A DNA stretch of 64,000 bases, taken from Rhizophagus irregularis (taxonomy: Eukaryota). Below, piece after piece: positions 25,835 through 57,127 of this stretch (position 1 is its first letter; the number at the start of each line of letters is the position of its first letter). Below the pieces are notes generated by a model. That model was not told where the DNA came from, made no database searches, and saw nothing but the letters and a program-made list of their open reading frames with translations. Made by a program: the position numbers and the translations under genes. The stretch is from assembly GCF_026210795.1 (NCBI RefSeq), contig NC_089431.1, positions 2,046,001 to 2,110,000 on the forward strand. Reading direction: 5' to 3'.

Positions 25835-26050
25835 AGCTTATTGGATTCATTTTAATAAAATGAATCAAATGGTAATAGTTTCATATTTCTAGGTATAATA
25901 GATGTTAAATTATATCACACATTAGCACTTTGTATTTTTATTCACTATGTATTTTTATATTTATTCCATAACTTGCCATCTATCTATTATACCTAAAAAT
26001 ATAAAATTACCACCATTCAACTTGTCTTATTAAGATGAATCTATAAGCTT
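25835..26050. repeat. Foldback / long imperfect inverted repeat (~80-bp arms)
   Basis: AGCTTATTGGATTCATTTTAATAAAATGAATCAAATGGTAATAGTTTCATATTTCTAGGTATAATAG pairs with CTATTATACCTAAAAATATAAAATTACCACCATTCAACTTGTCTTATTAAGATGAATCTATAAGCT. Confidence 0.55.
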
Positions 26051-26080
26051 TGTTTCATCTCTTTATGTGAATGTCAAGAT

Positions 26081-26256
26081 TATACATGCCACCCAAATTA
26101 TTTTGGACTGCCGTAATTATAAGTAAAATCCCAAATTCAATTATGACATCCCAAATTATTTGGCACTTTACATAGTAAATTATATATAAACCGAATGAAT
26201 TATGGCATCCCAAATTATAATTATGACATCCCAAAATAATTTGGGCAGCATGTATA
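26081..26256. mobile_element. hAT-type MITE (176 bp)
   Basis: TIR TATACATGC..CCCAAATTATTTTGG; 8-bp TSD GTCAAGAT at 26073-26080 and 26257-26264. Confidence 0.8.
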
Positions 26257-26529
26257 GTCAAGATATATAATAAATTAAAAAATATTTCAAGTGTTTTTTA
26301 AAACAAATTAAGAAACTCTTTACACAGGTCGAACAGATGTCATTGTCGCAAAATTTGCCTGGAATTTTTCTGGCAAATTGAGAATTATCCCGGTAAATTG
26401 GGGTAAATTGTGTTACAATTTTGGGATAATGGAGGACTTACAATTTGGCAAATTTTGTCAAAATGGCAAAATTCCTACAAAATTCCTAATTCAAATGTTG
26501 AGAAATTTTTCAGTAAATTATCATTAAAT

Positions 26530-26970
26530 TGTGGGAAATTTTAGGCAAATTTTTAGTAATGTTATGCAAACGAAGTGTAAATTGTGGTGAATTTAGTCAA
26601 ATTTTTAGTAATGTTATGCAAACGTAATGTAAATTGTGGTGAATTTTAGGCAAATTTTTAGTAATGTTATGTAAACGAAGTGCAAATTGTGGTGAATTTA
26701 GTTAAATTTTTAGTAATGTTATGCAAACGTAATGCAAATTGTGGTAAATTATAGTGAATTTTTAGTAATTTTATGCAAACGTAATGCAAATTGTGGTGAA
26801 TTGTAGTGTATTTTTAGTAATGTTATATAAATTGTTGAAAATTTAGGTGAATTTAGTCAAATTTTTAGTAATTTTATGCAAACATAATGCAAATTGTGGT
26901 GAATTTTTAGCAATATTAGGCCAATGTTATGTAAATTGTGATGAATTTTTTGTAATGATACGTAAATTGC
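26530..26970. repeat. Left subterminal ~52-bp tandem repeat of copy 1
   Basis: Unit ~AATTTTTAGTAATGTTATGCAAACGTAATGCAAATTGTGGTGAATTTAGTCA repeated; the same unit occurs at ~33770-34290. Confidence 0.8.
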
Positions 26971-27339
26971 AAATTTGAAATAAAAACTTTCCATTGTTGC
27001 ACAATTTACCGGGAAAATTCTGGTAAATTGTGTATTTTTTTGTCAAATTTTGGAAAAATGGACCATTTTACCAAAATTTAACTTTCAAATGCTAGAAAAT
27101 TTTTAGCAATTTTAGACAATTGAGTGACAATTGTTTGACAATTTTTGGACAATTGAGTGTAAATGTAATATTTTTAAGACAATTTCTGACAATTGAGTAA
27201 TAATTAAGCAACAATTTTGTGTAATTTTATACAAATTTTATAACAATTTATTGATTCTAATTTTATTAACAATTTATCTAATTATTCAATTATAACGTGT
27301 AATTAAGTACAATAATGTTAAAAAAAACAAACATCAAAA

Positions 27340-28871
27340 AAAACAAAAAGTTTTGAAGATTAATCTTCGAAACTCACCAAGCAAGGAGCCAAAGAACTAT
27401 TATCTTGTTACAATAATCTACAAAAAAAGAAAACCATTCAGTTAGAATGTTTCTTAAAGATAAAACAGAAGTTTCGTAACGAAACGTACGAAACTTACCA
27501 TTTCAGAAGCCATATCCAATACCTGAACGTAAAGTAATGGCTTCTATTCAACAATAGTTTTACGAGATTCATGTTTCCTAAGTTAGCTTCCCAGATATCC
27601 CGAACCTACAAAAAAGAAAAGGAACGTTAGTAAACGGTTCCTAATAAAAAAAAATTTAAGTTTCATGATATTTGTCATGAAACTCACCATTTAAACTGAA
27701 GTTTCGAAGTTATACTTCGAAACCTACACGTTATCCAAACCTAAGTTCGAATCTGGAGGGAGGGACCTACAAAAGAGAATAAGAAATGTTAATAAAACAT
27801 TTCTTTAAAAAACAAACTGAAGTTTTGCAACGTTTTTTTTGTTGCGAAACTTACCAAAGCCGTCATTCCGCTCGAACCTACAAAAAAAATAGAAAAGAAA
27901 CGTTAAAAAATGTTTCTAATAATAAAAAAAAAAACACGGTAAGTTTCGTTGCAAACTTACCACATTTTCACTTTCCAATGATACCCGAATTGGAGACCTA
28001 CAAGAAATGAAAAAGTAAAAGAAACGTTAGAACGTTTCTTAATTAAAAAAAACAAAAAAGATAAGTTTCGTTGATGAAATGAAACTTACATTTTTCCGTT
28101 TCAGAATCCTGGAGCACCGGAACTTACAAAAAAAGTAGAAGAAATGTTAGAGAACGTTTCTTAATTAAAAAGAAAATAAAATATTTTAAGTTTCATTAAA
28201 ATGAAACTTACATGTTGACGTTTCGGAATCTTGGAGATACGAACCTACAAAAAAAGTAAAAGAAACGTTAGAACGTTTCTTAATTAAAAAAATATAATAT
28301 AATAAGTTTCGTTAAGTTTCGTTAAAAACGAAACTTACATTTTCCGTTTTAGGAATCCTGGAGCACCGGAACTACCGAACCTACAAAAAAAGTAAAAGAA
28401 ACGTTATAGAACGTTTCTTAATTAAAAAAAATATAATATAAGTTTCGTTAAAATGAAACTTACATTTCCGTTTTGGCCATTAATGAATATTCATGCTGAA
28501 ACTTGGCGTTCTCCTGCACTACAAAAAAGTAAAAGAAACGTTAAAACGTTTCTTAATTAAAATAAAAATATAAATATAATTAAGTTTCGTTAAACTTACA
28601 TTTCCGTTTTAGAATCGAGGAGGGCCATTAACGAATATTCATGCTGAAACTTGGCGTTCTCCTGACCTACAAAAAAAAGTAAAAGAAACGTTAGAACGTT
28701 TCTTAATTAAAAAATAAAAATATAAGAAGTTTCGCTAAACAAACTTACATTTTGCCATTTCGGAAACCTGGCACCGGAATCTACAAAAATAAAGTAAAAG
28801 AAACGTTAAAACATTTCTTAATAAAGAAAAAAATAAAAAAAAAAATAGTTTCGTAAGATAACAAACTTTAC
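27340..28871 (-). ncRNA. Putative multi-intron non-coding transcript: ~12 intron-like repeats separated by 23-107 nt micro-exons (copy 1)
   Basis: Minus-strand units GTAAGTTTC...GAAACTT...AAGAAACGTTCTAACGTTTCTTTTACTTTTTTGTAG, e.g. 28667-28748, 28381-28463, 27998-28089. Exon lengths 32, 67, 55, 42, 33, 34, 37, 23, 79, 107, 40 nt. Transcription and splicing are inferred. Confidence 0.55.
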
Positions 28872-29209
28872 CTGACTTCTCCAAATGTAACGATAATTGC
28901 TATACCAACGGGAAATGGGAAAGGTAAGGGGGAAGGACGAGAGAGAGGGAAGTGGGGAGAGAGAGGGAAGGAGAAACGAGAGGGAGGGTGACGGGAAAAT
29001 GGTGAGAAGAAGGAAAGAGCAAAATAAACTAAATTAGTTTTTTTTTAAACTCTAAAAAAAAACTGCGGCTGCGGCTGCAATAGTTTATTTTTAGTATTTT
29101 TAGGTTAGTTAAAAAAATGAACTGCGGCTGCGGCTGCAATAGTTTATTTTTAGTATTTTTAGGTTAGTTAAAAAATGAACTGCGGCTGCGGCTGCAGTTT
29201 AACCAAGTT

Positions 29210-29520
29210 CATGTCACGTACTCACGTGATACACGTGACATGTATTTTATATAAATAGGGGGCTTTTTCCCGAAACTTTTTTTTTTCTTTTTTTATAATT
29301 TTTTCAATTTAATTGATAGATGTATATATATACTTATATATATACATATATATATATCTATCTAATAAACTTTATGAAAAGCCCCTCCTCTGTAAACAGG
29401 TAGAGGCCATAAAGTACCTATGAGGGGAGAGCTATGCTGCTCCTCCGCCTGTTTATAATAATAAAAGAAAAAAATTGAGCCTTTCAGTAGTAAGGTTTAG
29501 TATTAAATTAAACAACATAT
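29210..29520. promoter_or_regulatory. Conserved core of the element: paired CACGTG boxes, bidirectional TATA, nested inverted repeats
   Basis: CACGTG at 29223 and 29232; TTTTATATAAATA at 29245-29257; GGGGCTTTT...AAAAGCCCC enclosing a GATAGA(TA)n...TCTATC palindrome. Conserved at ~37300-37590. Confidence 0.55.
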
Positions 29521-31250
29521 CACAACACATCGTGTTGTTACATTGTTAATATTAACAATGTGTTTAATGTTAAATAATGCGTTTGGAATATAAATATTAT
29601 AAATTTAATAATGTCCGTAATTTACAAATAAATAAAAATTATCATCAATTTTAATGTAATTAAGTGTAATGCTACGTTATCCAATGTAATTGTAGTATTT
29701 TTTTGTGTTCTTTAGTGCAATTCCGCGTTTTTTAGTGCAATTCCGCATTTTCTAGCATAATGTTACATTTTCCAGCATAAATAAAAATTATCCTAATAAT
29801 TTTAATGTAATTAAGTGTAATGCTACGTTATTCAGTGTAATTGTAGTATTTTTTTGTGTTTTTTAGTGCAATTCTGCATTTTTTAGTGCAATTCCACATT
29901 GTCTAGCATAATGTTACATTTTCCAGTATAACGCGAAATTTTCTAAAAAATATGATAATTGTGGTACTTTTTAGTGTAATGCTACATTGTCTAGTGTAAT
30001 TTGGTGAAATGCTACATTTTCCAGTGTAATGCTATATTATTGAGCATTTTCCAAAAAAAAATTGTAACATTTTAACATTCTGACGAAAATGAAACATTTG
30101 ACCAAAAAAACATAAAATTTGCTGAAAATATGCAACATTTGACAAAAAATATAGAATTTTCATAAAAAATGCACATTTGCTAGAAAATTGGAATATTTGA
30201 CAAAATTTGATTTTAATTGATAATTGTTACAACAATTTTATGAAATGTTGTTACAATAATATCGCATTGGAGATAAAATGTGGCATTTTCATAAAAATGC
30301 ACCATTTGCAAGAAAATTGGAACATTTGACAAAAAAAGCAAAATTTGATTTTAATGACAATGTTATAACAATGTCACGAAATGTTACGAAATGTTACATT
30401 TGAGATATAATGTAGCATTTTCCCAAAATTTCATAAAATTTGCTAAATCGGACAATGTTGTAACAATGCTATTCCAAAAAATTGCTCAGCGTAATGCAGC
30501 ATTTTCCACAATTTCCCACCATTTACCAGAAAAATGTGGAATTTGCATTTTTTGAATTTTGGACAATGGTGCCCCTTCGACCTGTGTTATTAAAAAATAT
30601 TTTAAAAATTTCTTAAACAAAAAATAAATCATTTAAATATATATATATATAAAATTCTATAATTCATTATACAAAATAAAAATTTTACCTATAGTAAAAT
30701 CATTATTGTTAATTTGTTATACAAATAAAAATCTACTTTTTGCATAACTGCTATTTGATTATACAACTCAACCATATGACTTATTAAAAAATTATATACA
30801 GTAGTAGACTTTTATCCTCAAACTTAGTTTCGGCTATTTCCACGCTCATGTTCTGATACAAATATATTTTATATAAAATAAAATTTAACAAATGATATCT
30901 AACTGGGTTATGTAATATTATTTACGTAATAAATGCCATTATTCCCTCGCCTCACAGAAGCACAAAAATCACATTTATCTTCTTCAATGAAACAAGTAAT
31001 AATTTTCATCATTTTGTTAGAGCGAAAAAATAAGGCCCAATATGGGCAAAACTTTATTAAATGCTTCGTTGATAAGTATATACATTAACGGAACGATAAC
31101 CATATGTCTAGAAAATATTAAAACGCAGAAAAATTTGGGAGCTGTGAACACAAAAAAAAATTTAAAACCTCTGAACATGAATGCCCCTTTCAACTTGAAA
31201 TCTTTATTATTCTTTATTATGTAAAATAAAAAATACATTATACCATTAAT

Positions 31251-32433
31251 TTATAGAAATTTTTTTGGGGTGAATTGCTCCTCATTTTTTAGGCGACTGC
31301 GACCCTCTTTTAGTACCTCATAGAAAACATCTGTATTCTTCCTTGTCCTTGCTTTCCACGATAAAATGACTTTTATGGCTATTATGAGTTTTGAGAAAGC
31401 TTCCACTGTCCTCGGTACCTTGATATTTTGTAAGTCCATCATTATAATTGTGTTTTTCGAAAAGATATTTTGATGCTGATATAGTAAGTTGAAATCCGTT
31501 AGATTGTAAACAATATGTTTTGATATCTATAATTCTAGCTTTTGCAGAAGAAAGAAGCGACATATACAAAGCTGTTAAAATCACTTTTGTGCAGTATTCT
31601 AGCTTTCTGAGATCACCTTTTCTCTTTCTGCGTGTATTTAGAATCCCATCTTCTTGCGCTAAGACTTCTGTACCTAATGAGCTTTTCCATCAAGCTTCGG
31701 ATCACTCTTTCCAACAATGTTTAAGATTTCTTTGAGTTTGTTATAGGATATTGATGCTAACTCTCCGTAATTAAACTTAATATCAGTTTTTTCAAGGAAG
31801 GCGTTTCTCAATAAAGGTGGACGTCTATATGATTGAATTAAATTCACGTTCAGACAAAGCTTGGAGCAAGGTGTCATTTTGTACAAGAAGTAGAAGTGTT
31901 GGAGAAGATGCTGAACATAGATCAAGTCATTTGATGCAGTAGAGTAATTGATTAAATTCTCACCCAGGCACCTGCCTAAGGGTTCCAAGTCTATTACATG
32001 TTACAATATTTTACCTTTTTACTTGACAATTCAATTCCTTCAGTCTCATTTTCTCGCTTTTGAAGAGTTTGTAGTTTAACACCTTTGATTGATACTTCCT
32101 ATGCATGTGCATATTGAGTAAGCTGTTCGCAGAAAAAAAGTGTTAGAATAGACGAATACAGTCCAGATACTTTATATACGTTCTATTCTGATATCTTACC
32201 GCTCTTCCAAATAATATGTTGAGATATCCTAGAGAGGCAGTTTGGATAGCGGTTTTTTCCTCAATTTCCTTCCAGAAGCTGCGTACAACTTTGCACATTA
32301 AGCCTTCGCTGTTCTTTTGTCTGGGAATTTTCTACAAAAGAAGCGTCATTCTTTCTTTGCAACAGGGTACTCGTGAAGAAAATTATCGCAACTTTTTCCG
32401 AGTATTTTTCAGTAATCATTTTTTGCGTCCATT
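31251..32433 (-). pseudogene. Degraded gene of a lineage-expanded family, possibly restriction-endonuclease-like fold
   Basis: Fragmented frames joined by frameshifts and stops: ...SDPKLDGKAH...EVLAQEDG...GDLRKLEYCTKVIL...TYCLQSNGFQL...KVILSWK. The KxDG...E...D..KL pattern suggests an REase fold (inference). Confidence 0.45.
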
Positions 32434-33380
32434 ATAATTTATGAGAGACAAATTATGGGTTTCACGCGTATCAGTATATCGGTATCATATAACTACCCCA
32501 AGAATACCACCAAAAATTTTTGGTAACGTGACTTGATGAGTTTTATTGGTCAGGAACATTTATCTTGTAGATTTCATAAAAAAAAAATTAAAGAAACGTT
32601 TAATTTAAACATTTCTTATCAGTTATAGTCCTTTTCACTTTATAAAATTATTGGTTTTTTTTTATTAAAATAAATGAATATAAAATTATTTATTATTTAG
32701 AAATTTAACAATAAATCTTCGTGTTATTTATATAATTTAATAATAGTAATAAAAAAATAATTTTTACTATGTATTAAATAAAAAAGTCTTATTCTTATTC
32801 AAAACTTGATAGTTTACCTTTATATGTCCAAAGTTGTAAATAAATTTTTATTTAATATAAAAAACGCGTTTTTATTTTTACAACAAAATAAAATACAATA
32901 AGATTAAAAAGTAAATTATAATAAAAAAGAATAATATATATTTTAAGGGAAAAAACACCTATTTATTTATTTATTTTATGGATAGTCAGGAGAAATACAA
33001 TTTAAAACCTATTAAAAACAAATATAAAAAAACATATCTAGAAACCTGACTGAATCAAGATAGTGAAGGTGAGAAGTAAAAACTTGATAGATATATCTAC
33101 TATTTTTAGATTAGTAATACAAAGTGTTACCAAAAATTTTTAGATGGGTTTCTTAATGTATACTGGAACATATGATATTAATGTATGGAACTGGCTGGAA
33201 TTAACGCATATGCATGTGCATAATTCCTAAACTTAGGCCACCAGATATATGTTAAGTTACCTTGGCTTCACCCCTAACATAAGATGGGGCCTTCATAGTT
33301 TATCATATTAGTAAATCACATGATTGGTAGATCTATTAATAATCTTGATAGTATAATCAGTTACTAGCTCTATTCATTTA

Positions 33381-33534
33381 TAGATCGTATCAGATTGATA
33401 CAATAGCCCTGTTCAATTCTAGATCTGACCGGATTGATCGAAAATTTACACCCTTAAATAATTGGTTGCTGATGCGGTCAGTGGTCAGTCATACCGATCT
33501 ACAAAAATTGGTGTTTTTCCCTGATTACGATCTA
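33381..33534. mobile_element. Small MITE
   Basis: TAGATCGTA-TCAG ... CTGATTACGATCTA terminal inverted repeat with TA on both flanks. Confidence 0.45.
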
Positions 33535-34710
33535 TATAATAAATGACACATCTACACAGGTCGAACAGATGTCATTGTCGCAAAATTTGCCTGGAATTTT
33601 TCTGGCAAATTGAGAATTATCCCGGTAAATTGGGGTAAATTGTGTTACAATTTTGGGATAATGGAGGTCTTACAATTTGGCAAATTTTGTCAAAATGGCG
33701 GAATTCCTACAGAATTCCTAATTCAAATGTTGAGAAATTTTTCAGTAAATTATCATTAAATTGTGGGAAATTTTAGGCAAATCTTTAGTAATGATATGCA
33801 AACGAAGTGCAAATTGTGGTGAATTTAGTTAAATTTTTAGTAATTTTATGCAAACGTAATGTAAATTAAGGTGAATTTTAGGCAAATTTTTAGTAATTTT
33901 ATGTAAACGTAATGCAAATTGTAGTAAATTTAGTCAAATTTTTAGTAATTTTATGTAAACGTAATACGAATTGTGGTAAATTTAGTCAAATTTTTAGTAA
34001 TTTTATGTAAACGTAATGCAAATTGTAGTAAATTTAGTCAAATTTTTAGTAATGTTATGCAAACATAATGCAAATTGTGGTAAATTTAGTCAAATTTTTA
34101 GTAATGTTATGTAAACGTAATGCAAATTGTGGTGAATTATAGTGAATTTTAGTAATTTTATGCAAACGTAATGCAAATGGTGGTAAATTGTAGTGTATTT
34201 TTAGTAATGTTATGTAAATTGTTGAAAATTTAGGCGAATTTTTAGCAATGTTATGCAAACGTAATGCAAATTGTGGAAAATTGTGGTGAATTTTGCATTT
34301 TTTCGGTAAATGTTAGTTAAATCTTTGAATAATTTAGTGAAATTTAGGATAATTTCGGACAATTGAGTGAAAATGTTTTACCGATTTTGGACAATTGAGT
34401 GTAAACGGTATAAAATGCAACATTTTCGAGACAATTTAGTGAAATTTTGCAATAATTTTGGACAATTGTGTGAAATTTAGTAATAATTTTAAACAATTTA
34501 GTGTAAACGCTGTGACAATTTAAAACACTGATTTAATAATTTTACATAATTTATTACAATATTATTTATTAACAAATGCACAATTATTATTTAACGATGA
34601 GAATCTATATTGATCTATATTCATCAGATATCCGATGATCTATGGATAATCCACACCTCTAATTCATTCATGTATCAAATGTCCAGTGCCGAAGTAAAAG
34701 CCGGTGAAAA

Positions 34711-36815
34711 CTTAAAAAAGAAAAAAATGAAACATTAATATACGTTTCGTTGAAAAAAATCAAAATAAAAAACATTTCGAAGTTATATACCTTTGAAATG
34801 TTAAATTCCATACAAGGATCGCCGAACCTAAAAAAAGAAAAAACGAAACGTTAATATATGTTTCGTTGAAAAAAATCAAAATAAAAGATATTTCGAAGTA
34901 TAATATACCTTCAAAATATTGAATTCCTATGTCCATGAGCCACCGAACTAAAAAAAGTTAAAACATTTCGAAGGTATAACAAACATTTCAAGTATACCTT
35001 CGAAATGTTCCCCACTCCATTTCAGTTTTCCCTTTCTCTTTCCCCTTTCGTCTTCACCTTTCCCTTTCATTTTTCCGTTCCTTTAACCTACAAAAAAAAA
35101 AAATAAACGAAACTTTAAACAATGTTTTGTTACATAACAAAAATCCAATAATTTCGAAGTTCTAATACCTTCGAAATGTTGAAACGGCATCCTGGAACCT
35201 TAAAAATGAAAACCGAAAGTTAGTAAACGTTTCATTGTAAATAAAACAAATAAACTTCGAAGGTTCTTATATTTACCTTCAAAATTCTTCCGTACAGAAG
35301 GCGACCGGAAAATAAACTACAAAAATAAAGATAAACGAAACGTTAGTAAACGTTTACTAACATTTCGTTAAACAAAAAAAAAAACAAAATTGATTCGAAG
35401 GTAAATATTTACCTTCGAAATCTCGTCCTGGAGGCGAAGCCATGGATCTATAAAAAAAAACTGAAACGTTAGTTAACGTTTCGTAGAAAAAATTATTAAC
35501 AAAAAAAACGAAAATATTACCTTTCACCCAAAAATTTCGTCCGGCGTTACTACAAAAATAAGAAAAGAAACGTTAGTTAACGTTTCTTAAAAAAATAAAT
35601 AAAAATAAAGTTTCGCAACACAATGTTAAAACTTCCGTTCGTTTCTTTTAAAAAAAATCCAAACGTCCGGAATCAAAAGGAAAAAAGAAACGTTAGTATC
35701 GTTTCAAAAAAAAATTAATAAAATAAAGTTTCGCAACACAATGTTGCGAAACTTACCGTTCAAGTTCGAAATTCATCATCCAAACGTCCGGAATCTAAAA
35801 AAAGGAAAAAAGAAACGTTAGTATCGTTTCTTTAAAAAAAAAATTAATAAAATAAAGTTTCGCAACACAATGTTGCGAAACTTACCGGTTCGTTTCGAAA
35901 TTCATCATCCAAACGTCCGAATCTAAAAAAAAGAAAAAAGAAACGTTAGTATCGTTTCTTTAAAAAAAAAATTAATAAAATAAAGTTTCGCAACACAATG
36001 TTGCGAAACTTACCGGTTCATTTCGAAATTCATCATCCAAACGTCCGGAATCTAAAAAAAGGAAAAAAAAGAAACGTTAGTATCGTTTCTTTAAAAAAAA
36101 AATTAATAAAATAAAGTTTCGCAACATAGCATGTTGTTTTAAAACTTAAACTTACGGCTCATTTCGAAATTCATTATCCAAACGTCCGGAACCTACAAAA
36201 GTAAAAGAAAGAAACGTTAGTTAATCGTTTCTTTTAATAAAAAAAAAATAATTAATTAAGTTTCGCAACGATTCTTTGCGAAACTTACCGTTCGTTTCGA
36301 AATACATTATCCAAACGTCCGGCGTTCCTACAAAAGAAAAGGAAAAGGAAACTTAGAAACGTTTCCTTACAAAAAATTAAAAAATTTTTTTTAAAAAAAG
36401 TTTCGAAGCGAAACGCTTCGAAACTTACCTTTCGGTTTCTCATTTCCCAAAGTCAAACCACCGAAAAATCTATAAAAAAAAAAGAAAGGAAACGTCAGTA
36501 TGTTTCCTAAAAAGAATTTAGAAAAAAAGTTTCGAGGCGAACACCTCGAAACTTACCATTTCGTTTTCTAAGTCGAGTACGCCAAAAAAACCTACAAAAA
36601 AAAAGAATTATTGGAAACGTTAGTAATGTTTCCTAAATTAAAAGATTTTTTTAAAAAAGTTTCAAGGCGAACGCCTCGAAACTTACCGTTTCGTTTTTCC
36701 AAGTTGAATACGGCGAAAAGACCTATAAAAAAAAGAAGATATAGGAAACGTTAGAAACGTTTCCTAAAAAATAAAAAAAATATTAAAGTTTCGAATCGAA
36801 CAATTCGAAACTTAC
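34711..36815 (-). ncRNA. Putative multi-intron non-coding transcript: ~17 intron-like repeats separated by mostly ~30-45 nt micro-exons (copy 2)
   Basis: Example unit 35923-36013, minus strand: GTAAGTTTCGCAACATTGTGTTGCGAAACTT...AAAGAAACGATACTAACGTTTCTTTTTTCTTTTTTTTAG. Central exons of 37-39 nt do not keep frame. Confidence 0.55.
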
Positions 36816-36859
36816 CCTTTTGTTTTTCTGAAAGGAAATTTCCGATATTTCTAATTTAC

Positions 36860-37200
36860 GGTAAAAGGGGAAGGGAAGGGAAGGGAAAAAGAAGAACGAA
36901 AAGGGAAAGGGGAAAACGAAAGGGAAAAGGACGAAAAGGGAGGAAGAACAAAAGGGGAAAGGGGAAAATGAAACAAAAAGGGAGGAGGGAACGAAAAGGA
37001 AAGGGGAAATGGAACGAAAAGAACGAAAGGAAAAGGGAAATGGAACGAAAAGAACGAAAGGAAAAGGGAAATGGAACGAAAAGGGAGGGGGAGAACGAAA
37101 AGGAAAGGGGAAATGGAACGAAAAGGGAGGGGGAGAACGAAAGGGAAAAGGGGAAGGGGAAGGTGAGAGAAACAGGGAAGGTGAAATGGCGAAAGAAGGG
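36860..37200. repeat. Purine-rich tandem repeat (AAGGGAAATGGAACGAAA-like); putative pyrimidine-rich first exon of the minus-strand transcript
   Basis: Visible G/A-rich repeat; a shorter purine-rich counterpart sits at ~28910-29020 in copy 1. Confidence 0.6.
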
Positions 37201-38782
37201 GTAAGTAAAAGCCTGAGAAAAAAAAATTAAGCTTTTGCTAAAAAAAGCTTAATTTTTTTTTTCATTATACCGCAGCTAAGCTGCGGTAATTATTAAGTAA
37301 TATCACGTGATGCACGTGATATAAAATTTATATAAATAGGGGCTTTTTCCCCGAAATAATTTTTTTTTTTTATTATAATTTTTTGATAGATGTATATATA
37401 TACTTATATATATACATATATATATATCTATCTAATAACTTTACGAAAAGCCCCTCCTCTGTAAACAGGTAGAGGCCATAAAGTACCTATAGGGGGAGAG
37501 CCACCTTGCTGCTCCCTCCGCCTGTTTATAGTGACAAAAAGAGGGAGTCCTTCAGTAGTAAGGTTTCGTATATATAAATTAAACAACACATCGTGTTGAT
37601 ACATTGTTAATATTAACAATGTGAATTTAATGTTAAATAATGCGTTAGAATATAAATATTATAAATTTAATAATGTCTGTAATTTTACAAATAAATAAAA
37701 AATTATCTAATGTAATTAAGTGTAATGCTACGTTATCCTGTGTAATTGTAGTATTTTTTTGTGTTTTTTAGTGCAATTCCGCGTTTTTTAGTGCAATTCC
37801 GCATTTTCTAGCATAATGTTACATTTTCCAGTATAACGCAAAATTTTCTAAAAAATATGATAATTGTGGTACTTTTTAGTGTAATGCTACATCGTCTAGT
37901 GTAATTGCGGTATTTTTTAGTGTAATGCTACATAATCTAGTATATTGCTACATTTTTTAGTGTAATGTGGAATTTTCCAAAAAATGTGATAATTGTGATG
38001 CTTTTTAGTGTAATTTGGTGAAATGCTACATTTTCCAGTGTAATGCCATATTATTGAGCATTTTCAAAAAAAAAATGTAACATTTTAACATTCTGTCGAA
38101 AATGAAACATTTGACCAAAAAAACATAAAATTTGCTGAAAATATGCAACATTTGACAAAAAATATAGAATTTTCATAAAAAAATGCACCATTTGCCAGAA
38201 AATCGGAATATTTGACAAAATTTGATTTTAATTGACAATGTTATAACAATTTTATGAAATGTTGTTACAATGATATCACATTGAAGATAAAATGTGGCAT
38301 TTTCATAAAAATGCACCATTTGCAAGAAAATTGGAACATTTGACAAAAAAAAAGCAAAATTTAATTTTAATTGACAATGTTATAACAATTTTATGAAATG
38401 TTATTACATTTGAAATAAAATGTGGAATTTTCATAAAAATGCACCATTTGCAAGAAAATTGGAACATTTGACAAAAAAAAAGCAAAATTTGATTTTAATG
38501 ACAATGTTATAACAATGTTATGAAATGTTACGAAATGTTACATTTGAGATATAATGTAGCATTTTCCCAAATTTTCATAAAATTTGCTAAATCGGACAAT
38601 GTTGTAACAATGCTATTCCAAAAAATTGCTCAGCGTAATGCAGCATTTTCCACAATTTCCCACCATTTTCCAGAAAAATGTGGAATTTGCATTTTTTGAA
38701 TTTTGGACAATGGTGCCCCTTCGACCTGTGCTAGCGTCTGCACATTTTTTGCGTTAAACTTTTTGAAGTTCTAACTTTTACC

Positions 38783-39700
38783 ATGCCTATTCCAAAATCT
38801 ACTTTTCGTCCAATTGCTCCTAAACCACAAACACCTGTACGGGACCCTTATGTTATAGCTGTATTAACATTTACTCCATCAGAAATTCAAGAAGTGACGG
38901 TACTTACTACTGATGTTTCAACACCTGTAATCACTAAAGTTTCTAAAAAGAATAATGGCCAAAAAACAGAAAGAGCAAGTTCTGTTAAAGAAGAAACTGG
39001 CTGGGATGATACAAATACCGGATTATTGATAAGTTTTCTTGAAGATAATTTTGATATTTACAAAAAAAATAAGTCCAATTTTGCCAAAACAGCTGCTACT
39101 AAGATTTTTTCAGGAAAGTCGTGAGAGCAGATTAAAAATAAAGTATCTCGTCTTGTAACTAAGTATAATAAAATTAAAGAAAAGGAGAACAAAACACGAA
39201 GAGAGACGCAAGTAAAATGAAAATGGTTTGACAGACTTGATGCTTTATTTGGAACTCGTAAAAATCACAATCCGGGATTTTTAGTAGATGGATTTTCTGA
39301 TGATGTTCAATTGTTTGACAATTTTAAAGAAAAAGAAACAGAAACTAACGAAGAAGTTTTAGCAGAAAAAAAAGATAATCAAATTACTAAAAAATAAAAA
39401 TCTCTTTCACAGGATCCATTAGCCGAAGCCATGATTTCTATGAGTAATGCAAGACAAATAATTTGGGAAAAACAACTTGCCTCTGAGAATGACCTGTTTG
39501 AAAAGAAGCAAGTAGTTTAAAAGGAAATTAGAGAAGCAGAAACAGTTTTTAAAAAAGAAGAATTAGAAGTTGAGCGAATTAAAGCTGGAACATTGCGAAA
39601 GAAAATGGAGTTTGAAATAGAGCAATCACGTATGCAATATGAGATTAGAATGAAAGAATTGGATTTAAGAATGTTGCAATATAAATTATCTTTAGAATAG
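38783..39700 (+). pseudogene. PIF/Harbinger Myb/SANT-like accessory ORF, disrupted by stops
   Basis: WDDTNTGLLISFLEDN...GKS*EQIKNKVSRLVTKYNKIK...K*KWFDRLDALFG plus a C-terminal coiled coil; convergent with a HARBI1-type nuclease. Confidence 0.7.
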
Positions 39701-40037
39701 TTGCAATTTAACGTTAATAAGTAGTAGCAATAATAACAATAGCAATAATAATAGTAATAACAATAATCATAATAATAATAATAGTAATATAATATAATAG
39801 GTAATAATATAATAATAATGGATTTAACAATAAATTTGTGAATAACAAAACATTTTGCTGCAAATTTTTTATTTAAGAATTTAACATGTATTGTATTTTT
39901 TTAAAAATTCAATAAACTTAAAATTTAAATCTTTTATTTATCATATATTTGATGAAAATATCTTTTAAAATATGCATGATATATTATTTATGAAAAATTT
40001 ATGAAAAATGTTGATGAAAGATTAAATTTCTTTTAGC

Positions 40038-41010
40038 CTACCCAGTTCTTTTTAATACCTCATCATTATTCCTTAATGTATAATTATCATTTTCGCCATT
40101 ATCATCTTCTTCTATATTATTATTGAAATCACCCTCCCAAATATCCATATTTATTTCTAAAAAGTTATGTAAAATTATTGCACAACATGTGAATAATACT
40201 CCCATCTTAACCATTTTAATATCAAGATCCTTTAACATTCTAAATCTCGCTTTTAATCTCCCGAAGGTATTTTCTATTACAACTCGATGACATGAATGGA
40301 ATTGATTAAATTTTTTGTGTTTTCGAGAAGATGGATCTTTAAAAGGTGGGATTAAGAAAGGAGAAATAGGATAAGCTGAATCACCCAAAAGATAATCATC
40401 ATCTTGAATAAGATGAGAATAATCTTTATAAAAAAAAGAAATTCTATAAACTTGGGCATCATGTACTGAGCCCGGCCAGCCAACATCAAAACTAGTAAAA
40501 ATGCCTCTATCATTTACAATACCTTGACAGTGAATAGCATAGCGTTTTTTTCTAGTAAAGTAAACCTCTGGATCTTTATTTGGAGCATTTCTCATAGGAA
40601 TATAGGTTCCATCAACTGCTCCAATTACATTTTTCAGCCCTCCTAAATTTTCAAATCCTTCATTAACTTTTTTACGCTCTTCTGAAGTAGGCCACTTAAC
40701 AAACCTCTTTTTTTTGCTAAAATTGCTTGAATAACTCGTTTAGTATAAAGAATTACCGTCCCTTCTCCTATTCCAAATCTTGAACAAACTTCAAACAAAC
40801 TTCCAGTAGATCCAAGTCGACAAAAAAATACAGCTAACTGAAATTCAACACAAGCTTGAGGTTTATTTCCTTGTGATGAAAATACATGATGGGATCGTAT
40901 AAGGTTGGCTAATTGTTGGAAGTTATGTGGATGCATTCTTAAAATTTTTTTAAATCGAGTAATATCATAAAATGGAAGAACATTTTGCCACCAATGCTTT
41001 GACTTCACTA
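40038..41010 (-). pseudogene. PIF/Harbinger DDE transposase (HARBI1-like), frameshifted
   Basis: FKKILRM, RFGIGEGTV, VIGAVDGTYIP, YFTRKKRYAIHCQGIVN, GWPGSVHD, YLLGDSAYP, RVVIENTFGRLKARFR, ILHNF. Confidence 0.85.
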
Positions 41011-41589
41011 CGTGGTATAATCTTGGTTCTAAATACCGTGTATTTATTCATTTTATTAAAACTGTTTGTAAAATGATATTATTCTCTTCATCACTTGAAT
41101 TTTTCTCTTCTTCTTCTTCATGTTCATCTCCTAAAAATATTTGTAACTATAACAACTTATAAAGTCTTTCTTTAGGATTTATATTGTAACGGTAAAAGAA
41201 AAGAAATTATTTTACAAAGTTTTTTTCTTTAGTAATAAGTGTTATAGAAAAAATTATTTTTTTAAAGTCTTGTAAAGTTTTTTTTTTTAAAGAGTATTGT
41301 AAAAAAAATCATTTAAGTATTAAATCAAGTTAAAGTTAATCAAAGTTTAAATATTAAATCAATGATGAAATTGCAGATCAAACTGATATTTTAATGAAAA
41401 AAAAGCAAAAATCTGCAAAATCACAGACTTCCGCATAAATTTCACATAAAAAAAAAGCAGAAATCTGCAAAATCGCAGACTTTCATATAAATTCATATAA
41501 AAAATGCGGAGATCTGCTAATTTTACAGATCTCCGCAGTTCTGTATCTTAAAAAATTTCCCGATGATATGATTTTGCTATTTGAGATAA

Positions 41590-46113: not shown

Positions 46114-46559
46114 TTAAGCCATCTGGTCAGAAAGGATCATTTATATGGTTTAAATTTCCTAAACATATAATTATAAAAATAAGTATAAGTAATATAAATA
46201 TGCTTTGCAAGTATTTTATTATAAATCAATAAATTTTTGCTAGAATTTGGTAAAACGCATTACTTATTTTTAAAATAAGTAACTAATTTGTTTGTTATAT
46301 TTTCAATAAATTTATCATAATTTTGTGATTTTAAGTAATCATATGTTTACAAACATCACGTAAAGATCTATTCCAAATATAATCTAGACATAGAGGGCAT
46401 TCTCCTGTAACTATATTTACGATATAGTAGTTAGATCGGATTTCACTAGCTTTCTGAATTGCTTTTTCTGCCGATCTATTGACCAAAAATTTTCGGAAAG
46501 AAAATTTTATATCTTCGTACTAACAACTCTTATATTTTACCCAACTTATACCTTCTAAC

Positions 46560-48690
46560 ATGTCTAGAAACCTTGCTAGAAGAGGTGGCGGCAGCTATAA
46601 CCCTAACAGTAATAAGGCTGCTCGTCAAGAAAAGAAAAATAATAAAAAACAACTCTCCGATAACTCTGGTTCTGATAGTGATAATAATTCTCAAAAACGT
46701 TCCCGTATACTTACAAAAGACTCCATGGATGAAGACTATGAAGATTTCGTCGCCGACGCGCTGGCTGACGGTGGTTTAGTTGGTTCAACTTCGACCGCTA
46801 TTCCTCAACAAAATAATTCCCGCAGCACCGCCCAAGAAAATACTCAAGCTTCTACCCCGAATAATTCTGCTGCGCCTACTGCGCCTGGCCAAGACGCGTT
46901 TTCTGGAGCTAACGCGTCTATTCATGCACCTCGAAACAAAGAAAATAACTCATCCCCTAACGCGTCCCCTAATATGGACGAGAATGATGGTACATCGCCC
47001 GATCAGGCTGTCGATCCCTCCCCCACCATTACTATTAATCGTCAAGATTTCCTGGCTGCGGCTGCGCCCAACTCCGCTCCCCAAACTCTAGAGAAACTTA
47101 AAACTAATAAGGCAATCATTGATGCCGTTAACAATTTGTTTTTAGAAACATATGAATCATACACCGGTCGGGCTCGTATGACTGGTTCAGGGGACGCTAA
47201 ACGTCTCATCATTCACTTCCATACTGCGGAGGCTCGTGACTTGTGTATTGGTTCCACACACTCCGATTTTCCGGACCTACAATTCCACCTGTACGATCCC
47301 AAACAGCTCCGGTCCGATGAAGACCTCCGTGCAATTCAAGTCACAGATATTCCGTTTTTCATTACTAAACCCCAACTACAATCCTATTTCAAGAAATTTG
47401 GCAACCTGCTATCCCTTCATCTCTATTCAAGGAAAGGTGCCAAAATGCAACAAGCCCGCATCGTCTATGATCATGCCGATGCCATCGCCCGTTTTACCAC
47501 CCAATGGGCAGTTTATTGTTTTTCCACCTGTTTGCGCGTTACTCCCTGTCACTATTCAGTGAAACAAAAAGCTGCTCGTCGAGAATTTGTTGCTGTCCTC
47601 TCTGGACTCCCTGCTAACACTAAAGATATCCATCTCGCTCCGTTAGTTAAAGAGCATGGAGCTAAAGCTATTAACATTCCTCTTTCTCTAAACTCCTATA
47701 AACCTAAACCATGGGCTTATGTTACTTTCAATTCACAAACGACAATGGATGCCGCTATGGAACAAACAATTGGATTCCATGGTCGTACTCTTTGGTGGGG
47801 TACTTCCAATAATTCGAAAGCCCTCTGCCACAGATGTGGTAAGCTCGGTTGTGCTCCTACCTCCTGCCCGCTCAATCAACGCCGCGGACGCTCACGTACA
47901 CGTGACCCTGTTGCCGCCCTTAAAAAACGTTTCAACATTGGCCATAGACCTGCTCAACAAAGAGCTCCGCGTAATAATTCTCGGTCTCGCTCTCGCTCTA
48001 AATCCCGAGATCGTTCTGCCTCTGCTCAACGTCCGAATTCAAACCCCAACCGCTCTAATAATAATAATAATAGCTCTAACAATACTAAACCCTCCTCCTC
48101 TGGTCCAGCTCACTTCTCCTCAACTGCTCATGGACGCACGCCTTCCAATACTCGAAAAGGCAAAGATCGATCTGTTTCCTTTTCGTCCAATGGTCGTGCT
48201 CCACTCCTGGATCCGAATTCTCCTAATGCTCTTGAGGCTGCCCTTAAGATTCTTAATGTTTTAAAGAATCTTCAACAAGATGTTGCTCGTGTGGAATCCC
48301 GCATTTCAAATCTTGAACTTAACAATCAACGGCTATCTGCCATTGAAGCCCATTTAGGCATCAATCCTCCCTCCACTCCTGTTATCAATTCTGAACCTGA
48401 TCGGATGGAAGAAGACCCTCCTGAAACTACTGGTACCTTAATCCCACATCCTAATGCTCCCTTATCTTCTGGTGCAAAGAAATCCTCTTCCCCCAAATCT
48501 ACACTCAATAATGTTCCGCACTCGCCTCCACTTCCACTCCTAACCCTTCCCCGCAAGACGAATTGAACTCGGTTATTCAAGATCAAAAAGCGATTAAAGA
48601 TACCTTACAATCGCTCACTGGTTCCATCCAAGGTTTTATTGCTTCTCTTGGTGGTTCTCCCTCCGAACGAGCTTCTGCTCTTTCGCAATA
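46560..48690 (+). CDS. LINE ORF1 (RRM + zinc knuckle + coiled coil); a frameshift near 48540 probably truncates the listed ORF
   Basis: RAIQVTDIPFFITKPQLQSYFKKFG (RRM-like), WAYVTFNS, CHRCGKLGCAPTSC knuckle, RS-rich segment, coiled coil; plausible continuation to TAA at ~48690. Confidence 0.75.
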
Positions 48691-48738
48691 ACTGATTTCT
48701 CACCTCCTTTCCCCGTACTTTATTATCATTGTGTTCTA

Positions 48739-51700
48739 ATGATTGACAATTTTAATTATGATACGTTTGTTCGGAACTCACCCAACCCTGTAGATACTTA
48801 TAATTTTTCAGAACATGAATCTTTATTTACTACCTTAAATTCTTCTCCTATCCCCAATTCCTTTAATATTTCATCCTTTAATATTAATGGCCTTCGACAT
48901 AATAGTCAAGTTAAAATTGAACAAATTTTAAACTTTTTCAACCTCAAACATATTTCCTTTGGTGGTATCGTAGATACCCATTTATCCCCCAAACAAATTC
49001 ATTTTTTATCTAAACGCCTTCCTAATTATACTGTCTTTTCCTCTGACATGATAAAACTAAACAAGTCAAATCTACTGGTGGCGTTTCCCTTTTTATTGAA
49101 AAATCTCTTGCTTCTCATGTACAAGATTTTGTTTCACATTCCTCACGTATTTTATCTGTTGACCTTTATTTTAAAGGCAACATTAAATTGCGTATTTTTG
49201 TTATATATATCCCTCCTATTTCCGATTCTAAATTACGATCTGAAACCATTGATCTCCTTTTACAATTGTTAGTGCATACTAAACAACAAAATTTTTATCA
49301 CGCCATTTGTGGCGATTTTAATATGCATTTAGACATTTATTACCCTATTTATTTTAACCGCCCTTCTGTTGCTTCTCAACGGTCTTATCGTTTGTTGCAT
49401 CATCTTTTATCTCATGGTTATGAAGAAACCATTCCTGCTAATGCTTCTGATTCACTAGGCACCTTCCACCGTGATGACCAGATTACTCGCATAGACTATG
49501 TTTGGTCCTGCCCGATGCTAAAAAGCTTTGCTCTCACTTCCTACATATTCGACGCCCATGATACCTGCTCTTCTGATCACAATCCTGTCATCACGTATTT
49601 TGATGATTCACTCTTGGCTGCATCTATCAAGGTTGCTCGTGCTAAACAACTTCAACGTCGAACTCGCCGCGTTTTCAAATTTGATTCAGTCACTACTCAA
49701 CAATGGGAATCCTTTTCCACTCACACTGACTCTCTTTGCGATGTTCTTCCTTCTACTTTTTCAACATGGCACATCAATCATCAATGTGAATACTTGCATT
49801 CTCGTATCGTGAAAGCTGCTAATGCTTTTCTTCCATCTGTCATGGTCGGTAATCAACACACACCTACGGTGCCTAAAGATTTGGAAGCTTTAACTCAACA
49901 TTATCGTTTCCTCAGCCATCTTTTGCATTCGATACGCTTATTGTGCAAATATCCTTCTACATATTTTAATAGATATGAACATGTTTGGTCCATACATTTC
50001 ATTCGACTTCAAAAAATTCTTCATCTTTATAAGAAGGTTATCCCCTCTCCCCCTATTTTACCTACTTCTTTAGCCACATGTAGGCAAGACGGTTTTATTT
50101 CTTTATTAGAATCCTTAAAGATTATTTCCAGTGCCCTTTATGGCCTCCTTCTTCTCAAAGAAAAAGATTTTCAAGATTCTTCTATTCGTGCCAAAGTGGA
50201 TGATAGGGACAACAATTTTGAATCTGATATTTCCTCATTCATTAATTCAGCTCTCTCAAGGACTCGACGTCGTATCACATTATATCGAATCTTTATTGAC
50301 CACCCTACACAACCTAAACTCCTAACGAACCCGCATGATATTGATGACGCTGTTATCAACCACTTCCAGAATTCCGTACCTATTAAATCATCTCCTCCTG
50401 ATAATATTTCAGCTCTTCCTGAAAAATGGTCTTCTGCTTATCGCCCTATGGATGATGTGAATTCTTCTATTTATGATTCTTTGTTGGATCCTCCTTCTCT
50501 TGATGAATGGTTGTCTACGGTCTCTTCTATGCCTAACGACAAAGCTCCTGGTCCTTCTATGATTACTTATGAGATGCTTAAGCATCTGGGTTCCAGCGCT
50601 TCAGCTTTGGTCTTAATCCTGGTCCAGTCATGCTTCCATACTGCAGATATTCCTGATTTATGGCATCAAGCTATGGTTTTCCCTATCCCTAAACCTCACG
50701 AATGGAAATGTCAACTCAAGAATACAAGACCTATTACTTTACTTGAAGTTATTAGGAAATCTTTGGTCAAACTCTTTTATAATCGTCTCGCTTCCATTTT
50801 GGCTTCGAATGAAGTTCTCAAAGGAGGAAACTTCGCCGGTCTCCCTGGTGGTTCTTGTCGTGACCCTTTTGTCGTCCTGGAATCTATTATCCATGATGCT
50901 CATGTCAACAAATCGCCGCTTTGGATCCTTTCACAAGATATTTCAAAGGCTTTCGACTCGGTTGATCTCAAGATGTTGCGTTTTGCTTTAGAACGCATTA
51001 AACTTCCTGCTTCTGCTACCAAGTTTATTTTATCCCTTTTTATGAAACGCTCTAATCGCGTTTTTACTGCTCATGGAACTACACCTTCTTACCGCGTTCG
51101 TATTGGTATAGATCAAGGCGAAGTTATCTCTCCCTTACTCTGGGTTATATATATGATCCTTTATTCGACTGTTCTTAAGAATGAAATGATGGATCCGTAT
51201 ATACTTCATGCTCCTTCTTTATCTAATCCCTTGGCTGAGACAAATTCAGATGGATTACGCATTAACAACTTGGTCTTTATGGACGATTCCACTTTAATTT
51301 CGTCATCTAAATCTGGAATGGAATCGATGCTTTCTATTACGGAAGAATTTTATCAGATTAATAATACTTCCGCTAATCACAACAAATATGTTTTAATTAC
51401 TAATTCGTTGCCTCCCACTTCAGCTCCTTCGCCTTTTCCAGTCGTGTTTGACTTGCAATTATCTGGACTGAACAAAGTACCTTCCATTTCTATTGTGCCT
51501 ATTTCCATGCGAATAGTTCTTTCTGCTTCCCTGGGCTGTGGTTCAATGTCGCTTGATCTCGTGATTTTGTCAGAAAGCAAGTTGCTCGATGTAACTCGCG
51601 CTACCGTTCGTCCTGCCAAATTATCTGCTAAGCAAGTAGTTTATTTACACAACACTATCCTTATTCCGAAATTGGAATATCGCATGCAAGTACACACACT

Positions 51701-55749: not shown

Positions 55750-56780
55750 AGAGCCTATTGTCAATTTTAATTTGGAGGTATATCACCTCTGAAATTTTAA
55801 TTGCCAGTCCGTCATTCAACAGTACAAAATTAATTTGTAGATCTGACGCATATTTTATATGAATTACATTAATTGGCATATTTTAATGTTGATTTTGTCC
55901 CACAAAGTCACGTTTAAATATAACAATAACTCACTAATCAATAACATTAAACATGAATAAGCCACAAAAAAAAATTTTTTTATTGTTCGATATAAAATTT
56001 AACAAGTTTACCTTGGAGGAAGTTACCATTCCACCTTATATTTTAGTTAAGGTAAGATTTTTTATATATGAATTTTGCAAATTTTTACAAGGTTTTTTTT
56101 ACATTATTGAAAAATATATATTATTTTCTTTACCAAATTAACAAAATAACAAAAAAAAAATATTTTTTTTTATTTTTCTTTTTAGTTTTTTTTTGGCACA
56201 CCATGATCTTACCAGTTTTGGAAAACACACTTAGGTAATGTAATACCTTCTTCTAGTAAATTTTTGAAGTATTTATGTTGTTGTGATGTATTTTTAAAAT
56301 AGTGCAAAAACCATTCCAGAGCAATAGTATTTAATATATAAAAATCTGTCAAAATTAATTATAGATTGCTGATCATTTTGTACTGTTGAGTGGCGGACTG
56401 GCAATTAATTATTTTTAAATAAAAAAAAATTTTTTTATATATTATAGGCTTTGGATGGAACCTATCGATGAGTTTGAAATTCAGAGGTATGCTTATCTCC
56501 GAAACTTAATTTATTTAAAAAAAAAAATAATAATTTTTTATTTATATTATATAGGTTCCGGATGGAACCTATTGATGATTTTGAAATTTAGAGGTATATT
56601 AACTTCCGAATCTTTAATTTATTTTAAAAAAAAATAATAATTTTTTATTATATTATATAGGTTCCAGATGGAATCTATTGATGATTTTGGAATTCAGAGG
56701 TATACTTACCTCTGAAATTTAATTTATTTTTTAAAAAAAAAATTATTATTTTTTATATTATATAAGTTCCAGATGGAACA
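55750..56780 (+). repeat. Third intron/micro-exon tandem array (4 units, 39-nt exons)
   Basis: TATAG|GTTCCGGATGGAACCTATTGATGATTTTGAAATT(C/T)AGAG|GTAT... repeated; the first intron contains the TTAA element. Confidence 0.6.
55801..56404. mobile_element. Non-autonomous element flanked by TTAA, termini TTGCC
   Basis: TIR TTGCCAGTCCG(T/C)CA(T/C)TCAACAGTACAAAAT with TTAA on both flanks. Confidence 0.8.
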
Positions 56781-56793
56781 CATGAGGAATATT

Positions 56794-57127
56794 CTGTATT
56801 TTTCCAATATTAAGCACCCCCCGAAATTAAGCACCCCTTTACTTTGCATGATATCAAGCATAAACTGAAAATAAGCATCTCTCCGACTACTTATTGATTT
56901 TATTATATTATCGAAAAAAACAAAAATTACAAAATTACATTATTATTGAAAAATATATTTACAAATAAAAGAATTTAACTACTGAAACTTTTTTTTTGCA
57001 AAATTTTTTTAAATTAATTTAAAGACGTTTAAAAGGCATTTTTCTAAACTGTCGAAATTAAGCACCCCCTTAAACTTTTCGCACAAAATCCCTGTAAAAA
57101 GGGGTGCTTAATATTGGATAAATATGG
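56794..57127. mobile_element. pogo/Tigger-type MITE
   Basis: TIR C(T/C)(G/A)TATTT(T/A)TCCAATATTAAGCACCCC; TA on the right flank; internal AATTAAGCACCCC repeats. Confidence 0.7.

Follow-up and report, generated by a model that had tools for sequence, protein, structure and literature searches.

Two copies of a non-autonomous transposon with terminal inverted repeats (TIRs), located in 64,000 nucleotides of the Rhizophagus irregularis genome (contig NC_089431.1, assembly GCF_026210795.1, positions 2,046,001 to 2,110,000; hereafter the window, numbered from its first letter), carry on their minus strand tandem arrays of short, structured introns separated by micro-exons. The arrays are not a chance pattern: a profile built from 68 metagenome introns only gave 40 matches in the window, all of them within the two arrays (27 on the minus and 13 on the plus strand, the latter because the hairpins are palindromic) and none elsewhere. 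Such arrays travel as cargo in several families of DNA transposons in arbuscular mycorrhizal fungi, and their transcription by RNA polymerase II (Pol II), followed by splicing, is likely. We propose, with a probability of roughly one in three, that their function is that of a spliceosome-loading cassette, which makes the element resemble an intron-rich host gene and thereby lessens its silencing or decay.

An earlier note on this DNA, made from the letters only, had described about 12 and about 17 intron units behind a TATA/CACGTG core, with a few mutated sites, and its description is borne out. Copy 1 contains 11 complete introns of 81-94 nt (GT in 11/11, AG in 11/11) and a twelfth donor at 27377 that has decayed and has no acceptor, while copy 2 contains 17 units of 50-104 nt (GT in 16/17, AG in 16/17), unit 9 being without AG and unit 10 having GG in place of GT. 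The splice junctions that the note named (28666/28749 and 35922/36014) are exact in the sequence, and both copies show TATAAA and TCACGTG upstream and AATAAA downstream of the array, AAUAAA being the chief poly(A) signal in R. irregularis (PMC10234402; statements on cited papers refer throughout to the portions of them that were available). Internal exons measure 23-107 nt in copy 1 and 29-90 nt in copy 2. The consensus unit reads G/GTAAGTTTCG-loop-CGAAACTT, a U-rich linker, GAAACGTT-CTAAC-GTTTC, a U tract and TAG/GTT (slashes at the exon borders), and displays the GT donor, branch motif, pyrimidine tract, YAG and proper spacing of U2 introns. Its donor, branch and acceptor signals are near-perfect, and it forms two short hairpins. 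Two designs occur: in units 1-10 of copy 2 the 5' hairpin is internal to the intron, and in its distal units the hairpin is composed of the exon end and a GTATA donor, so that these units, like a third array (56405-56779), pair the exon end and GTAT donor with the intron.

As a host comparison we used 26 introns of the neighbouring NIPBL gene, obtained with a simple rule from donors read by eye. Folding z-scores below -2 were found for 24/28 array introns vs 0/26 NIPBL introns (median -3.4 vs 0.35), and GTRAGT donors for 19/28 vs 2/26. The observed/expected CpG ratio is 1.8-2.6 in the arrays vs 0.7-1.4 in the subterminal parts of the elements, an elevation due to the motifs themselves; a loose hairpin scan of the window returned noise only.

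The evidence for selection comes from the splice signals. When units were anchored without regard to the donor, G+1 was retained in 66/67, T+2 in 63/67 and positions +3 to +5 in 64-65/67 units, vs 53/67 for the stem CpG, and the bases at -2 and -3 before the donor are free to vary; splice motifs are thus more conserved than neighbouring bases, although one pairwise comparison, that of copy 2 with L008, lacks this excess (see below). AG is kept in 81/85 donor-intact units, the first AG after the branch hairpin is a YAG in 114/136 units vs 45 (maximum 61) in 500 shuffles, and the distance from branch to AG is 22-29 nt. Between copy 2 and its homolog L023, splice sites and stems changed at 8/183 positions vs 70/423 for exons and linkers (p=1.7e-5). 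The inner 5' stem covaries, with Watson-Crick pairs in 40/47, 34/40 and 27/34 cases (79-85%) vs 37-59% when permuted (0/2000), the best arm being chosen and relatedness left uncorrected. Overall, splice motifs are 80-99% conserved while exons stand at background identity, and since the two copies share a shell and both arrays are near-intact, the constraint has outlasted array turnover. This conservation of splice signals and hairpin pairing over drifted exons indicates more than a neutral satellite, and the arrays have probably been kept by selection.

The earlier note saw the intron as the conserved repeat and the exon as a variable spacer. The conservation pattern stands, but the exons are not unrelated spacers: exon identity inside copy 2 has a mean of 0.63, rising to 0.71 for adjacent exons, vs 0.55 for shuffled ones, and inside copy 1 it is 0.53 vs 0.48. 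Between the two copies exons reach 0.53 (shuffled 0.52) and introns 0.71 vs 0.60. A BLAST search of the exons among window and metagenome loci, the kind of check that the note had suggested for finding outside sources, matched other arrays only. By their sequence, the exons are diverged paralogs that arose via tandem duplication, not acquired spacers, which is why a guide or CRISPR-like reading fails. Only two inserts look foreign, a 34-nt segment (28480..28513), which appears as loose ends in 41-64 reads per run and in one contig and is absent from the viral and prokaryote collections, and an enlarged exon (27499..27605), the sequence of which is also present in R. irregularis gene models.

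Across 51 distinct exons the median length is 33 nt (interquartile range 31-38), and length modulo 3 is distributed as 15/22/14, that is, without frame bias. Joined in silico, the exons yield ATG-initiated open reading frames (ORFs) of 37 aa (copy 1) and 63 aa (copy 2) at most, in agreement with the earlier observation that they do not keep frame. A protein-coding reading was rejected given the short ORFs, the lack of frame, gene models in cycling frames (see below) and the lack of any Pfam match; no Atlas match at 0.9 or above was obtained for it.

Concerning the shells, the earlier report of two TIR elements of 4.3 and 5.2 kb without ORF agrees with the elements found here, which are bounded by TIRs and target-site duplications (TSDs) and in which neither an ORF nor a transposase is seen. 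Their TIRs share 11 perfect bp, CACAGGTCGAA, and are imperfect out to ~30 bp. The shells are alike at 80-90% outside 27253-29222 / 34503-37303, and the cargo inside these limits is not orthologous between copies. In public runs with the same organism label an empty site of copy 1 was found, with a joint 26319->30587 that skips 4267 nt, i.e. the element plus its TSD, in a DNA contig of single-copy depth and in 14 and 21 RNA reads; the copy 1 insertion is therefore polymorphic and absent from another R. irregularis sample. Read depth corresponds to ~500 single-copy equivalents for the termini and 26-94 for the arrays, contig depth being no true copy number. Empty site and terminus depth together indicate a family that is recently mobile and abundant.

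The CACTA/CMC superfamily is defined by TIRs, long subterminal repeats and TSD (PMC8978399). Copies 1 and 2 present TIRs with subterminal repeats of several hundred nt and 3-bp TSDs (TTA and CTA, the empty site skipping the element plus 3); the terminal motif is CACAG, and CACAG or CACTG in related loci, compared with CACTA/CACTG in CACTA/CMC. Such 3-bp TSDs are also compatible with PIF/Harbinger or Zator. Hence the sequence fits non-autonomous CACTA/CMC-like elements, a fit and not a proof because no transposase is seen, which in an autonomous CACTA/CMC partner would be of the Transposase_21 type.

A single metagenome scan gave 23 loci or contigs with this intron, many of them near-duplicates that form about a dozen lineages by eye, and in 23/23 the introns stand in arrays; the intron pattern is absent from the viral and prokaryote collections. 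The array-bearing loci have at least four kinds of element ends, one of them hAT-like: L004, L005 and L010 end in CACAGGTCAA; L001 and L007 end in CACTGGTCAA and contain a convergent gene whose likeness to hypothetical proteins of R. irregularis is 61-76%; L003, L020 and L022 have hAT-like ends; and in L017 the array lies within another kind of ends. Two loci, L008 and L023, are homologous to copy 2. Several of copy 2's near-identical middle units are missing from L008 (by eye), which demonstrates tandem amplification, and L023 has the promoter boxes and array of copy 2 with a different sequence upstream of the boxes. Taken together with the 75-81% likeness of the distal copy 2 units to L016/L017 and with the different ends, this indicates that cassettes and units move between shells.

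Some further features of these loci are recorded here. L017 contains an ORF of a TET/JBP-family oxygenase (711-2189, minus strand, Pfam E 1.7e-9) near two arrays and, at ~7300-9000, an oppositely oriented micro-exon array with non-hairpin introns that leads toward a zinc-knuckle-like ORF. The first 650 bases of the L005 array strand hold TCACGTGA with pyrimidine-rich leaders pointing outward on both sides, which suggests a bidirectional promoter. The last exons of L011, L012 and L014 represent a common coding-like terminal exon in arrays of different elements, the L012 version giving no Pfam match at E<=1.

Expression data were mapped over 26200-35530, using two raw poly(A) runs, one probable RNA assembly and one DNA assembly. 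Poly(A) read depth over the arrays is 7-24, and 83-86% of the mapped reads continue into other loci. Per DNA equivalent, the arrays have 40-300x the poly(A) reads of the subterminal repeats, hence array transcription is weakly indicated. The units are very probably real spliceosomal introns that are spliced in some copies. The R. irregularis models P0083, P0084 and P0090-P0095 join copy-1-type exons in order, with introns skipped, at the places predicted here. R. irregularis has Augustus predictions trained on RNA-seq (PMC8298701), and the array protein models are probably of this kind; they therefore demonstrate acceptance of the introns by a gene finder, not splicing as such. A related array family gave 21 protein hits, a single contig having several isoforms; in three of the hits, back-translated peptides reproduce the intron motifs in their order (0-7/1000 shuffles). 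The frame in which one exon is read differs from model to model, and a single DNA unit, translated in its three frames, yields three peptides that recur (10/10 codons; null maximum 3), so that the models are spurious as proteins; tblastn with the retained-intron peptides gave low-complexity matches only.

The mechanism that we propose starts from what is shown above: one exon-intron unit was duplicated in tandem, units were exchanged between elements with different ends, and the splice signals, their spacing and the hairpin pairing are better conserved than exons and linkers. The TATA/E-box promoter would drive an RNA of ~2-2.7 kb, spliced to ~1-1.3 kb and encoding no protein, and the locus, in which a promoter and a CU-rich exon are followed by 10-25 optimal introns and a poly(A) signal, would look like an intron-rich host gene. 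The selected output would be dense spliceosome loading, successive junctions being only ~35 nt of exon apart; because it would act in cis, non-autonomous copies would benefit as well by staying open and mobilisable. Since the splice signals are selected in non-coding cargo of mobile, polymorphic elements, the element itself is most simply the beneficiary. Introns act as a mark of self in HUSH-dependent silencing (PMC8770142) and in Cryptococcus (PMC5851062), and R. irregularis methylates transposable elements (TEs), the expressed ones being less methylated (PMC8647823). The more ambitious version, in which a cassette of 10-25 optimal hairpin introns is swapped among superfamilies as a counter-defence whose sole product is the act of splicing, is tentative and slightly less probable than the camouflage function as such.

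Several results weigh against the proposal. We know of no intron-sensing silencing pathway in Glomeromycota. CpG sites mutate no faster than other C/G (arrays 0.92x, shells 1.3x, p=0.27), which gives camouflage no support, and as arrays and shells behave alike, special protection of the arrays does not follow. Array RNA per DNA equivalent (0.2-0.3) does not reach the average for the single-copy spacer (0.75-0.84, a value that one bin drives), the libraries look unstranded, and the strand opposite the array is A-rich. Among the 15 of 75 joints listed, all of them DNA-supported, there is no predicted intron junction, and introns are present in those RNA reads that can be interpreted, an outcome which the method favours; this junction test has little power, because the DNA run does not contain copy 1 and short exons, once spliced, are unplaceable where copies diverge. 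Between copy 2 and L008 there is no splice-site excess (changes at 4/27 for the donor, 4/25 for the branch and 36/198 for the exon, with units in part out of register). G-U pairs are not favoured over A-C in the stems (18 vs 13; 10 vs 27), which gives the RNA strand no distinction, so that the hairpins may be DNA palindromes from template switching. Seven loci (L004, L005, L006, L010, L011, L013, L021) hold long runs of ~45-nt units, each composed of a U tract, TAG and an exon without donor or branch, adjoining complete intron units; hence the repeats also amplify in unspliceable form. Finally, the near-duplicates mean that locus counts overstate independence.

Among the alternatives, the one that survives best, though unlikely, places selection in autonomous partners, in which a transposon gene would have the arrays as its intron-rich untranslated leader or trailer, and takes elements like copies 1 and 2 as inert deletion derivatives. 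In the loci with hAT-like ends (L003, L020, L022) the last exon reads as the last 21 positions of Dimer_Tnp_hAT (E 0.04-0.05, below the cut-off), and in L003 and L020 the array runs on the same strand into these codons of the dimerisation domain (Pfam 64-84/84); a hAT-type ORF also follows downstream of the third array in the window, and in the models P0035 and P0085 array exons are joined with other coding sequence. However, the array of L001 and L007 is convergent with the element's gene, the two copies of one shell type bear unrelated yet intact arrays, ATG is present in 32/51 exons, which is poor for a leader, and the Harbinger transposase of the window has no array upstream, by eye or by profile.

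Somewhat less probable is a reading in which hairpins that mask the donor make spliceosomes stall and thereby supply RNA interference, the arrays being a self-limiting or host-exploited source of small interfering RNAs against the element families. Donor positions +1 to +6 are indeed predicted to be paired more in the array than in NIPBL introns (0.72 vs 0.61, p=0.016), the poly(A) reads contain introns, a 90-nt exon is antisense to the copy 2 leader, SCANR provides a precedent (PMC5851062), and ~20% of R. irregularis small-RNA loci lie in unannotated regions near TEs (PMC8647823). Yet SCANR substrates are poorly spliced, in contrast to the near-perfect array signals, which are stronger than those of host introns; pairing of the branch A does not exceed that in host introns (0.44 vs 0.59); and a silencing trigger is hard to maintain by selection on polymorphic selfish copies.

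To the same low degree we consider a neutral minisatellite, in which a captured intron with its flanks was amplified by slippage and unequal exchange, the palindromes are mutational and splicing has no present function. It would account for the donor-less acceptor arrays, the other minisatellites within array-bearing elements, the lack of RNA-strand bias in stem pairing and the presence in copy 2 of recent, almost identical duplicates whose sites are broken, and satellite arrays and captured fragments are known in CACTA elements (PMC8978399). It does not account for G+1 and T+2 being best conserved although they lie outside the stem, for the constrained branch-AG distance and exon length, nor for motif conservation over exons at background.

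Least probable of all is that the excised introns are structured RNAs, following host-gene logic, or that the spliced exons are guide or decoy RNAs from acquired sequence, both of which the earlier note had entertained. The architecture resembles C19MC-type non-coding hosts (PMC2691840), the stems covary, one insert is shared with another transcript, and foreign-looking sequence has enlarged one exon. On the other hand, the introns match no known RNA family, the best of 11 Rfam rows reaching 36 bits where the gathering score is 90, and the stems, mostly under ~16 bp, are too short for pre-miRNA or H/ACA; the lack of a favoured RNA strand also speaks against their release as structured RNAs. 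The guide or decoy idea founders on the paralogy of the exons, only two inserts looking foreign and the 34-nt one being absent from viral and prokaryote collections. An H/ACA RNA on the opposite strand was rejected by eye, again for stems that are too short.

Compared with known systems, container and architecture each have precedents (CACTA satellites, C19MC, introner-like elements) and their combination has none in the portions of the literature available. CACTA/CMC elements with captured fragments or satellite arrays (PMC8978399; Tgm-Express, PMC1947982) are alike in TIRs, long subterminal repeats, 3-bp TSD, internal tandem repeats and small captured pieces, for which "camouflage" was suggested earlier. 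They differ in that the unit here is a full optimal spliceosomal intron plus micro-exon, with conserved splice signals and occurring in hAT-like elements as well, and in that the ends are CACAG and no transposase is seen. The host genes C19MC-HG (PMC2691840) and SNORD115/116 (PMC3413130) likewise consist of tandem exon-intron cassettes without ORF, the intron being more conserved than the exon. Their introns carry miRNAs or snoRNAs at fixed loci, whereas here the repeated exons are non-coding as well but the introns, of 80-95 nt, encode no snoRNA or pre-miRNA by Rfam and reside on mobile, polymorphic elements. Introner-like elements of fungi (PMC4457414) also place many similar spliceosomal introns in one genome. 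These are single, near-identical and dispersed in unrelated genes, unlike the present introns, which in the window and the 23 loci are always arrayed, with paralogous exons, inside transposons, and absent from the host introns of the window. Introner-like introns are structured, too. CRISPR-like arrays alternate a conserved repeat with variable spacers; the likeness extends to the repeat and the ~35-nt variable segments, which here are diverged duplicates and not unrelated spacers matching foreign DNA, the repeats being introns and associated genes being absent. HUSH (PMC8770142) and SCANR with intron-dependent expression in Cryptococcus (PMC5851062) supply a logic by which introns protect or expose a transposon; these are host surveillance in other organisms, and no report of a transposon intron array as counter-measure was found. 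Introns in the recombinase genes of Glomhopper (PMC13465315) are a different matter.

The earlier statement that this is not a described system agrees with our literature search, which found no description of such arrays, subscription papers and supplements (among them the TE libraries of PMC11952901, PMC8647823 and PMC10234402, which may list them unclassified) being outside it. The available portions of the R. irregularis genome and TE papers (PMC10234402, PMC11952901, PMC8647823, PMC5751038, PMC13465315) do not mention them. The camouflage function, if true, would be categorically new, a transposon-encoded answer to intron-based genome surveillance. If spliced and selected, the arrays would be a natural experiment on the roles of introns without protein, a direct test, through hundreds of polymorphic copies with intact or broken arrays, of introns as a self mark against TE silencing in fungi, and a ready source of new introns and micro-exons. 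Even with a modest function they matter for annotation. Unclassified repeats make up 24% of the R. irregularis genome (PMC8647823), part of which the arrays would account for. Dozens of "unnamed" models among P0035-P0095, often several isoforms per contig, are array translations; these are likely annotation artefacts counted as orphan genes, and being annotated as multi-isoform "unnamed" proteins in R. irregularis assemblies, the arrays inflate orphan-gene counts.

Table 1. Coordinates of the two elements, their arrays and related features in the window.
Feature	Position	Strand	Details
Copy 1 element	26323..30586		4,264 bp; non-autonomous TIR element; TSD TTA at 26320-26322, 30587-30589
Copy 1 subterminal 52-bp tandem repeats	26526..26906		
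Copy 1 AATAAA signals	27247..27267	-	at 27267, 27252
Copy 1 array	27378..28871	-	introns 28871-28781, 28748-28667, 28599-28519, 28463-28381, 28338-28245, 28211-28123, 28089-27998, 27960-27878, 27854-27767, 27687-27606, 27498-27418; decayed 12th donor at 27377
Enlarged exon	27499..27605	-	107 nt vs ~32-nt version in another copy; weak ankyrin-like reading
Foreign-looking insert	28480..28513	-	34 nt of ~45-nt insert in two copy 1 exons; matches a different expressed transcript
Copy 1 putative first exon	28872..29220	-	CU-rich leader
Copy 1 putative Pol II core	29223..29251	-	TATAAA, then two TCACGTG boxes; presumed function
Copy 1 subterminal repeats	29628..30205		periods 151, 30, 39 bp
Copy 2 element	33555..38730		5,176 bp; TIR family of copy 1; TSD CTA at 33552-33554, 38731-38733
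Copy 2 subterminal 52-bp tandem repeats	33758..34282		
Copy 2 AATAAA signals	34550..34570	-	at 34570, 34555
Copy 2 array	34711..36815	-	17 intron units
Purine-rich exon	34998..35087	-	90 nt; antisense to copy 2's own leader (30 nt, 90% to 36900-36929)
Copy 2 putative first exon	36816..37300	-	long CU-rich minisatellite
Copy 2 putative core	37304..37332	-	TATAAA and two TCACGTG boxes
Third exon-intron array	56405..56779	+	107-nt period; 39-nt exons; GTAT donor within hairpin; ~1.8 kb upstream of hAT-type transposase fragment

The window is fungal DNA with a GC content of 28%, and its genes include Rad17, NIPBL, BTB, Harbinger-type and hAT-type transposases and a LINE; the Rad17 shows 99% identity to that of R. 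irregularis. The third array is broken by a ~350-bp element with inverted ends (~56784-57130), and downstream of it more small exons and a hAT-type (DUF659) ORF at 58559 are found. Short inverted-repeat elements (26071-26266 and 25844-26041), of high depth in the DNA run, adjoin the left end of copy 1. Directly after copy 2, at 38735-41047, a 129-aa ORF is convergent with a frameshifted Harbinger-type transposase, and copy 2 may be nested in this Harbinger-type element. The LINE (46524-54347, plus strand) comprises an RRM ORF1, endonuclease, reverse transcriptase and RNase H, split over several frames. Finally, 62532-63444 consists of 11 copies of an 81-bp palindromic tandem repeat, whose CGAAAC/CGCAAC-type motifs are like the intron hairpin arms but without splice sites.

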